This document shows, piece by piece, positions 2,473 to 2,498 of a stretch of DNA of 64,000 bases. The stretch's first letter is position 1; every line of letters starts with the position of its first letter. The position numbers and the translations under genes are program-made. Origin of the DNA: Candidatus Multivoradales bacterium (GTDB taxonomy: Bacteria; Acidobacteriota; Thermoanaerobaculia; Multivoradales; J023); contig CBDFLE010000005.1 of the NCBI GenBank assembly GCA_965248925.1, forward strand, positions 928,001-992,000, in the 5' to 3' direction. The notes under the pieces are model-generated. The model saw nothing but the letters and a program-made list of their open reading frames with translations, was not told the origin of the DNA and did no database searches.

Positions 2473-2498
2473 TTTCCATAATGCACGCGTTATGGAAA
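2473..2498. other. dif/cer-like palindromic site; copies at 11971, 21295, 31884, 39366, 46908
   Basis: TTTCCATAA-TGCACGCG-TTATGGAAA; perfect 9-bp arms, 8-bp spacer; inner CATAA/TTATG as in E. coli dif. Confidence 0.7.

Follow-up and report, generated by a model that had tools for sequence, protein, structure and literature searches.

A palindrome repeated in an acidobacterial Rhs array is one half of a four-arm Xer-type cassette

In the stretch of DNA considered here (64,000 nucleotides of a Candidatus Multivoradales bacterium, hereafter called the window), a 26-bp palindrome that occurs in each of six tandem units of an Rhs array is accompanied by a second, imperfect palindrome, and the two together form a cassette of four Xer-type arms. 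Cassettes of the same anatomy recur downstream of related recombinases in several phyla, the spacers within their sites co-vary, and the cassette is internal to the repeated unit, the ends of which are found elsewhere, at the edge of a fragment of a toxin gene. The original prediction had taken the palindrome for the whole of the site: the palindrome is real, but it represents only half of the four-arm cassette, and its partner had been missed.

The array, its units and the two palindromes

The array is headed by a full-length Rhs gene, behind which tandem units are arranged on the minus strand; in each unit an immunity-like gene is accompanied by an XRE repressor, by symE, by a CHC2-Toprim primase and a PRK01287 recombinase, by the site and by an Rhs-core fragment whose tip is variable (Table 1). 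The CHC2/Toprim primase-like protein is likely to be a replication protein, while the recombinase scores below both the XerC and the XerD equivalog cut-offs; residue 204 of all six recombinases is Trp, where nearly all the aligned relatives have Arg. By eye, several short palindromes can be recognised in the intergenic region between symE and the XRE gene (7514-7684), and these are candidate operators of the repressor. The orphan ORFs start with hydrophobic, signal-like N-termini (1772-2015 and the equivalent segments of the other units), the full Rhs gene being devoid of such an N-terminus, and they might be expressed and exported independently. The named homologues of a flanking glycosyltransferase belong to Acidobacteriota, and no Rfam family matches positions 1-10400 at E<=1.

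Table 1. Positions in the window of the candidate sites, genes and insertion sequences of the array; C and D denote XerC-like and XerD-like arms, and the stroke denotes the centre between them
Feature	Position	Strand	Remarks
Putative immunity gene	500..937	-	Assigned by position; no Pfam or NCBIfam match
Orphan ORF	960..2015	-	Rhs-core fragment from 1771, type A tip, unrelated hydrophobic N-terminus
10-bp repeat, 5' edge of Rhs-core fragment	1762..1771	-	Unit boundary, candidate attachment core
10-bp repeat, other copies	end at 9625, 18949, 31182, 38664, 46206		In the full Rhs gene, ends at 56654
Candidate D/D site, unit A2	2473..2498	.	Arms 10/11 and 10/11 identical to the D/D arms of L014
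Candidate C/C partner site, unit A2	2533..2562	.	Two XerC-like arms, each 10/11 identical to the C/C arms of L007 and L050
Candidate D/D site, unit B1	11971..11996	.	Partner 12031-12060
Candidate D/D site, unit B2	21295..21320	.	Partner 21355-21384
Candidate D/D site, unit D	31884..31909	.	Partner 31944-31973
Candidate D/D site, unit C2	39366..39391	.	Partner 39426-39455
Candidate D/D site, unit C1	46908..46933	.	Partner 46968-46997
Element tyrosine recombinase	2907..3980	-	NCBIfam PRK01287 subfamily, 427.7 vs 371 bits
Recombinase, other copies	at 12412, 24645, 32206, 39799, 47341		Catalytic residues intact in 6/6 copies
CHC2 zinc-finger/Toprim primase-like protein	3980..7144	-	1054 aa
SymE-family toxin gene	7217..7513	-	
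XRE repressor	7560..8054	+	Best NCBIfam match phage_RstR, 75.6 bits (cut-off 80)
IS3-family element, two ORFs	10334..11964	+	Second copy 19658-21288
IS21	21538..24446	-	Separates the site from the recombinase in unit B2; has one target repeat
IS21, second copy	49238-52143		Within the primase gene of unit C1
Full-length Rhs gene, array head	55795..60852	-	Tip identical to the tip of unit C2

The palindrome has six exact copies in the window, with no seventh at up to three mismatches, and neither it nor its partner is found upstream of the full Rhs gene as far as position 64000; a chance origin is ruled out by shuffling, which gave none in 100 shuffles. Perfect 9-bp inverted repeats flank a centre of 8 bp, and this 9-8-9 palindrome can be read as an 11-8-11 Xer-type site (2471-2500 in unit A2). 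Its A+T content is 62%, against 29% in the surrounding spacer, and its start lies, in order of position in the window, 434, 441, 441 (with the IS21 removed), 322, 433 and 433 bp from the stop codon of the recombinase, the value of 322 bp being due to the loss, in unit D (near 32200), of about 112 bp from the stretch that separates the partner site from the recombinase. These measurements agree with what had been claimed beforehand, namely an identical palindrome in six units, AT-rich within GC-rich DNA and, ignoring IS21, 322-441 bp from the recombinase stop. The identity across the six units is, however, not independent conservation, because the spacer around the palindrome is itself 97-100% identical between unit types: over the 701 bp to the left of the site, type A is identical to type C at 701/701 positions and to type D at 683/701, and the six copies represent only four unit types. 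Unit D carries about 18 private changes to the left of the site.

The second site, an imperfect 11-8-11 palindrome lying 62 bp to the right of the first in all six units and separated from it by a linker of 32 bp, was found with a matrix trained on the regions downstream of the relatives' recombinases. The four arms of the window are identical to those of one relative (L014) at 9, 10, 10 and 10 of 11 positions and, compared with the D/D site of that relative, the palindrome carries the same change in both arms, its symmetry being preserved. On this positional homology we lean towards regarding the palindrome arms as XerD-like; unsupervised matrices assign them no class (12.0 vs 11.6 for one arm, 12.4 vs 12.6 for the other) and give the partner arms weak scores (4.2 and 7.4), and by eye the palindrome arms, which are mutually palindromic at 9/11 positions, also match predicted left dif arms at 8/11. 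A dif- or cer-like core, as had been predicted, is probably not what the palindrome contains, both its arms apparently being of one class and the XerC-like arms sitting in the separate partner palindrome; as far as its sequence can be read, the window has in duplex DNA no core made of a XerC plus a XerD arm.

All the Rhs fragments begin at one sharp edge, 10 bp of which are common with the full gene. Compared from edge to edge, units C1 and C2 show 0 differences over 7542 bp, and units B1 and B2 show 14 differences over 9324 bp, 13 of them in one patch inside an insertion sequence. The C2 fragment is identical to the full Rhs gene over 210 bases, whereas the fragment of unit D departs from it at base 11, and these two observations confine the crossover to about 10 bp. 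Exact tandem units found elsewhere end in terminal repeats of 14 bp (L036), 5 bp (L069), 11 bp (L030) and 24 bp (L051), the last of which lies within the Rhs core, the toxin-gene edge being identified in the window and in L051 only; tandem units ending in repeats of 5-24 bp suggest a site-specific insertion swapping the Rhs tip, and not ordinary homologous recombination. Variants on either side of the palindrome travel together with the unit defined by these edges, and the palindrome is internal to that unit, 702 bp from its boundary. Its candidacy as attachment site or duplicate boundary is therefore rejected, the boundaries being at the Rhs-core edge, and the enzyme of the element more likely acts at the toxin-gene edge than at the palindrome.

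That the palindrome marks no duplicate boundary had in fact been anticipated, as had the nature of its left-hand neighbour in the B units, which passes the NCBIfam cut-off for IS3 (188.8 vs 160 bits), and the co-duplication of this IS3 with the unit, borne out by the 14/9324 differences between B1 and B2. The insertion sequence, whose ORFs encode 154 and 373 aa, comes within 4 bp of the candidate D/D site on its outer side. Unexplained extra bases are seen at both its ends (10329-10333 and 11965-11970), with no clean target repeat, and the 13 changes that distinguish its two copies are clustered at 10564-10619.

Relatives, arm classes and spacers

The recombinase was aligned with 19 of 120 listed homologues, and a genome scan that took the best 80 of about 579 matches yielded 79 loci; among the matches listed, no relative exceeds 70% identity. 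Xer-type matches number 37 in the 78.8 kb just downstream of the recombinases, against 10 in 918 kb from other parts of these loci; the contrast is overstated, the matrix having been derived from the downstream regions themselves. Distinct regions of at least 300 bp amount, among the matches listed, to 81 (80 from relatives and one window unit), of which 52 hold no match, 9 one, 18 two and 2 three, the partner site of the window falling under the threshold in this count; at least two matches are present in 20/80 of the regions outside the window, including one case (L057) of two overlapping readings and not a pair, against 0.0 in shuffles, where one match occurred in 2.2 shuffled regions.

In most carriers the cassette lies 20-900 bp downstream of the recombinase gene, and relatives carrying two C-type and two D-type arms span several phyla. 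The arms occur in four orders: C/C then D/D (the window, L005, L006, L007, L014, L021, L026 and L050), D/D then C/C (L038 and L064), D/C then C/D (nine loci, mostly from Gammaproteobacteria, in addition to E. coli rhs arrays) and C/D then D/C (L015). Spacers range overall from 5 to 11 bp and those of D/D sites from 5 to 8 bp, with 5 bp in L007, L014, L050 and L067. The many regions devoid of a cassette indicate that it is dispensable; they include ten Actinomycetota rows, which a quick tree places as the sister group of the enzyme of the window, and 6/7 extra plasmid loci are without a clear cassette.

The cassette region, in its version with D/C and C/D sites, matches 57 of 5426 complete E. 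coli genomes, at a median of 4 places per carrier genome. Next to narZ in E. coli (L084, L085, L094 and L096) the same module is found in arrays behind a VgrG-Rhs gene, while an E. coli cdiA locus (L093:6001-6106) has a match to the cassette region without repressor, primase or recombinase. On a Providencia plasmid (L086:1208-1279) the cassette is inverted, lies 3' of the repressor gene and has a 12-nt linker; on a Leptospira plasmid (L092:1176-8452) parA and parB come after the genes for repressor, primase and recombinase, an arrangement that suggests that these three make up a replicon. A possible degenerate cassette is located 4.6 kb downstream of a recombinase, among small unannotated and immunity genes (L003:15694-15816).

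Unsupervised clustering of 56 arms separates two classes, which by eye correspond to the two arms of dif sites, one class to the left (XerC) arm and the other to the right (XerD) arm; the dif rows used for comparison, from the accessible part of a supplement (PMC3025954, supplement 2), are predicted and not experimentally tested. Again by eye, both C arms of a Polyangiaceae relative (L026) are identical to the Sorangium left arm at 11/11 positions, as are the C arms of L017 and L001 to the Hahella left arm (11/11); the partner arms of the window reach 9/11 with the left arms of Ellin345 and Myxococcus, and its palindrome arms 9-10/11 with right dif arms, the rows concerned being those of Acidobacteria and Myxococcota. 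By this visual comparison, the arms appear to follow the predicted dif of the host lineage rather than the enzyme of the element.

The recombinase segment aligned to XerD residues 211-229, which we take to be the recognition helix, does not track arm type: near-identical segments in L005, L007, L012 and L017 are associated with different arms, and different segments in L005, L021 and L026 with a common C arm. On the enzyme tree (a quick tree of 92 rows, from which frameshifted or short recombinase rows were excluded) phylum is clustered, with 17 changes vs 47.2 when shuffled, which tells against the reading that the arms follow the host. The loci with the enzyme but no cassette, the cdiA match to the cassette region without the enzyme and the behaviour of the arms all favour the host's XerC and XerD, by which the candidate arms are probably bound; of the earlier suggestion that the site serves host XerCD or the element enzyme, the assignment to the Xer family stands, with host enzymes as the probable users, and the dif/cer-type core is not supported.

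As for the spacers, in the nine loci of the order D/C then C/D the outer run comprises 29 paired bases vs 9.3 with the partners permuted (p 1e-4) and the inner run 17 vs 7.7 (p 0.004), and in the ten symmetric cassettes the spacers are self-complementary (C/C 24 vs 5.8; D/D 12 vs 3.4), the permutations holding composition fixed and the loci being phylogenetically related. The Providencia cassette, fetched after this analysis, differs from that of E. coli by a spacer change that is compensatory, and the XerD side bears the longer of the two paired runs in 7/9 of the D/C then C/D loci. Folding joins like arms in 20/20 cassettes, as it would in any inverted repeat; in all four orders the usual fold consists of one XerC stem and one XerD stem, with 2-6 extra pairs beside one arm. 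In the spacer test the window stands apart, its centres showing no self-pairing at the first base: the self-pairing runs of its spacers are 0 and 0, the cross run is 3, and 6/8 positions match (p 0.018), both centres being GC-alternating. On its minus strand two folds compete, with pair probabilities of 0.56/0.78 vs 0.13, the folding of the region is no stronger than that of shuffles (z -0.18 and 0.23), and of all the cassettes that of the window fits the folding model least well.

A folded-strand model and the competing readings

We propose that the palindrome may be the XerD-side half of a four-arm cassette for host XerC plus XerD, carried by a replicon-like element (repressor, primase, recombinase, toxin tip and immunity) that would insert into toxin genes of the Rhs or CdiA kind, at a short repeat. 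In the duplex chromosome, where no XerC-plus-XerD core is apparent, the cassette would be silent, and this silence would, according to the proposal, allow six direct copies to persist. Once one strand is exposed in the replication or transfer of the element, like arms would pair to give a XerC stem and a XerD stem, with the extra paired bases forming next to an arm, and if two such folds on the same strand underwent one strand exchange, a multimer or tandem array would be cut to unit-length circles. As no copy of the cassette is split or coincides with a boundary, we infer that its partner would be another copy of itself, as we do the single-stranded phase, the strand exchange and its product. 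The role of the cassette would then be to monomerise or circularise the replicating element, the insertion at the toxin edge being handled by the element's own enzyme. We assign to this model as a whole, which is drawn from comparison of sequences, slightly less than an even chance. The more specific idea of a split Xer site, in which a XerC hairpin and a XerD hairpin assemble on one strand into a working recombination site, we consider doubtful; to our knowledge there is no precedent for two separate hairpins making one XerC/XerD site.

Neither the window, nor the mapped duplicates, nor one unit-length circle has a circle junction or breakpoint at the cassette. The circle, a circular record of 8758 bp (L001), was considered as an excision product at the palindrome and rejected, its junction mapping to primase homology, in the primase gene and not in the cassette; its recombinase gene matches the neighbouring unit, and the record may have arisen by recombination or as an artefact of assembly. 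Another circular record, of 11,289 bp (L002), has one D/C site, with no partner among the listed matches. The looping out of units at the palindrome, which the original prediction had envisaged, has left no sign: duplicate ends are at the toxin-gene edge.

The short D/D spacers (5-8 bp, and 5 bp in four loci) fit strand exchange poorly, and they are one ground for imagining a platform at which no recombination takes place, the D/D site binding two host XerD, as XDS may do, and the C/C site two XerC; at such a platform SMC-type complexes, or tracking proteins of another kind, could be unloaded or blocked, or it could serve as a landmark of replication or termination. The ability of the cassette to move and flip agrees with this, as does the description of XDS, in the accessible parts of two papers, with a 5-6-bp centre and perhaps two XerD (PMC9226527, PMC11840125). 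The platform leaves unexplained, however, both the conserved XerC-type partner and the spacer complementarity with its compensatory changes, and about half of the cassettes have C/D and not D/D cores; we regard it as unlikely. Much the same holds for a duplex cer/psi-like site, at which host XerCD would resolve multimers or loop out units: although the 8-bp centre, which is that of cer, the presence of one directly repeated site in every unit, a gammaproteobacterial second site with a C/D core and a 6-7-bp centre, and a gene set resembling a small replicon (preceding parA and parB on the Leptospira plasmid) speak in its favour, the window has no apparent C/D core, no helical phasing can be recognised by inspection in the distances between centres (about 44-163 bp), the arrays persist both in the window and in E. 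coli with its several places per carrier, and the palindrome coincides with neither a duplicate end nor a circle junction, all of which makes this reading rather improbable.

The cassette might also be the target of the PRK01287 recombinase of the element, acting alone or with one host Xer, given its position downstream of that gene in most carriers, the Xer-related nature of the enzyme, with its catalytic residues intact, and the symmetric arms, which suit a homotetramer; yet the arm classes are two and not one, helix segments and arms are mismatched across L005, L007, L012, L017, L021 and L026, most elements have the enzyme without the cassette, the E. coli cdiA locus has a cassette-region match without the enzyme, and a better candidate is available at the toxin-gene edge, so that we give this possibility little credit. 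A CTX-type attP, current or ancestral, that would integrate a single-stranded element at the host dif, has in its favour the D/C then C/D relatives, which like CTX attP pair one long and one 6-7-bp centre with a bulge, and the repressor, whose best NCBIfam match is RstR. An attP of this type is nevertheless very unlikely, every examined cassette being intact and internal, the elements being located in Rhs/CdiA loci and not split at dif, and the longer run being on the XerD side in 7/9 loci, where CTX requires XerC-side homology to dif; no phage record matches the recombinase at E 1e-60, a result on which a phage origin was also rejected. Finally, a perfect palindrome upstream of an ORF could be the operator of a transcription factor (XRE or a host regulator) for the orphan toxin ORF 458 bp downstream, but Xer-type arms that recur across phyla, in four orders and with spacers of 5-11 bp, argue otherwise, as does the failure of a scan, weak for this host, to find a sigma-70-like promoter in 1900-3000; we hold this reading to be most improbable.

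The cassette among known Xer sites

A description of the element or of the cassette was not found in the openly readable full-text literature, and a new variant of Xer site, inside an element that swaps toxin tips, is apparently undescribed. The accessible part of PMC3482391 mentions XerC/D recombinases beside polyimmunity loci and may list these loci; dif sites flank vgrG clusters in Neisseria (PMC10210955), and PMC9933511 and PMC5131962 contain nothing relevant to element or cassette. If host XerCD does act on it, a permutable four-arm cassette would extend the range of Xer sites beyond dif, cer, pdif, XDS and CTX attP; if the split site proves true, replicating Rhs/CdiA tip-swappers would release unit-length circles and be invisible to XerCD in the chromosome. 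The boundary repeats, which point to an exchange route for orphan Rhs toxin tips, are probably the larger story of the window, and the E. coli version with D/C and C/D sites makes the cassette testable with well-studied XerC and XerD.

Integron attC sites stand in arrayed units, each site acting only when folded from one strand, and the cassette resembles them in its arrays of units with one proposed folded-strand site each; it differs in its host-Xer-like arms and in not forming the boundary of the unit, and with 101 vs 265 bits the recombinase of the element does not qualify as an integron integrase. With dif and cer, as far as the accessible parts of the sources describe them (PMC5357621, PMC3025954), the palindrome shares 11-bp arms, the same inner core and, in the case of cer, the 8-bp centre; it departs from dif in having a centre of 8 and not 6 bp, arms of like class without XerC-plus-XerD asymmetry, six copies in repeated units instead of a single one at the replication terminus, and a partner site. 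The 8-bp centre between 11-bp arms is likewise that of cer and psi, but for their XerC plus XerD core homology with L014, L007 and L050 says D/D, the unsupervised matrices leaving the arms unclassed. Sites of the cer/psi kind also possess some 180 bp of accessory sequence, to which PepA and ArgR/ArcA bind, and resolve dimers in dependence on XerCD. Acinetobacter pdif sites are, in the accessible part of a preprint (bioRxiv 10.1101/2022.12.17.520857), also paired Xer sites in mobile DNA, whereas in the window no passenger gene separates the two sites, only the 32-bp linker. Judged by its sequence, the palindrome is not a member of dif or pdif, and probably not of cer.

The neighbouring insertion sequence recalls the ISAba32-type IS1202 elements in its TGT ends a few bases from an arm. 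According to the accessible part of the same preprint, in the ISAba32 subgroup the left end lies beside the XerC arm, and a single transposase of 400-500 aa is expected (bioRxiv 10.1101/2022.12.17.520857); the IS of the window has two ORFs and passes the IS3 cut-off, is without a 5-6-bp target repeat and has its right end beside an arm leaning towards the XerD class. It was therefore rejected as an IS1202-type Xer targeter, the defining features being absent.

The XDS of Bacillus subtilis and Staphylococcus aureus consists, in the accessible part of its description, of a XerD arm, a degenerate centre of 5-6 bp and the inner five bases of a second XerD arm (PMC9226527). Two facing XerD-type arms around a variable centre are common to both; compared with the XDS as so described, the window has an 8-bp centre (5 bp being found only in the relatives L007, L014, L050 and L067), full-length arms, a XerC-type partner and a location in a mobile element, and the conserved C/C partner argues against an independence from XerC in the style of XDS, which acts in the absence of XerC and unloads SMC. 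The attP of CTX is made, as the accessible parts of three papers describe it, of two inverted dif-like sites, active only when folded as a single strand and masked in the duplex (PMC4246890, PMC5357621, PMC9226527). It is resembled in the paired dif-like sites tens of bases apart, in the pairing of like arms, in the unequal centres and in the RstR-like repressor nearby; this architecture is present in the gammaproteobacterial relatives, the one-stem fold of two inverted sites being found in the nine D/C then C/D relatives, in L015 and in L086, and the centres of the relatives are cross-complementary (p 1e-4). The centres of the window, both GC-alternating, match each other at 6/8 positions (p 0.018). 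The window differs in that C/C then D/D gives two hairpins and not one forked stem, and the element as a whole differs in having its own recombinase and in sitting in toxin genes, with the cassette whole, internal and not at dif. On this comparison the cassette would appear to work most like CTX attP in the relatives, or like XDS as regards the half formed by the palindrome of the window, while probably being a member of neither.
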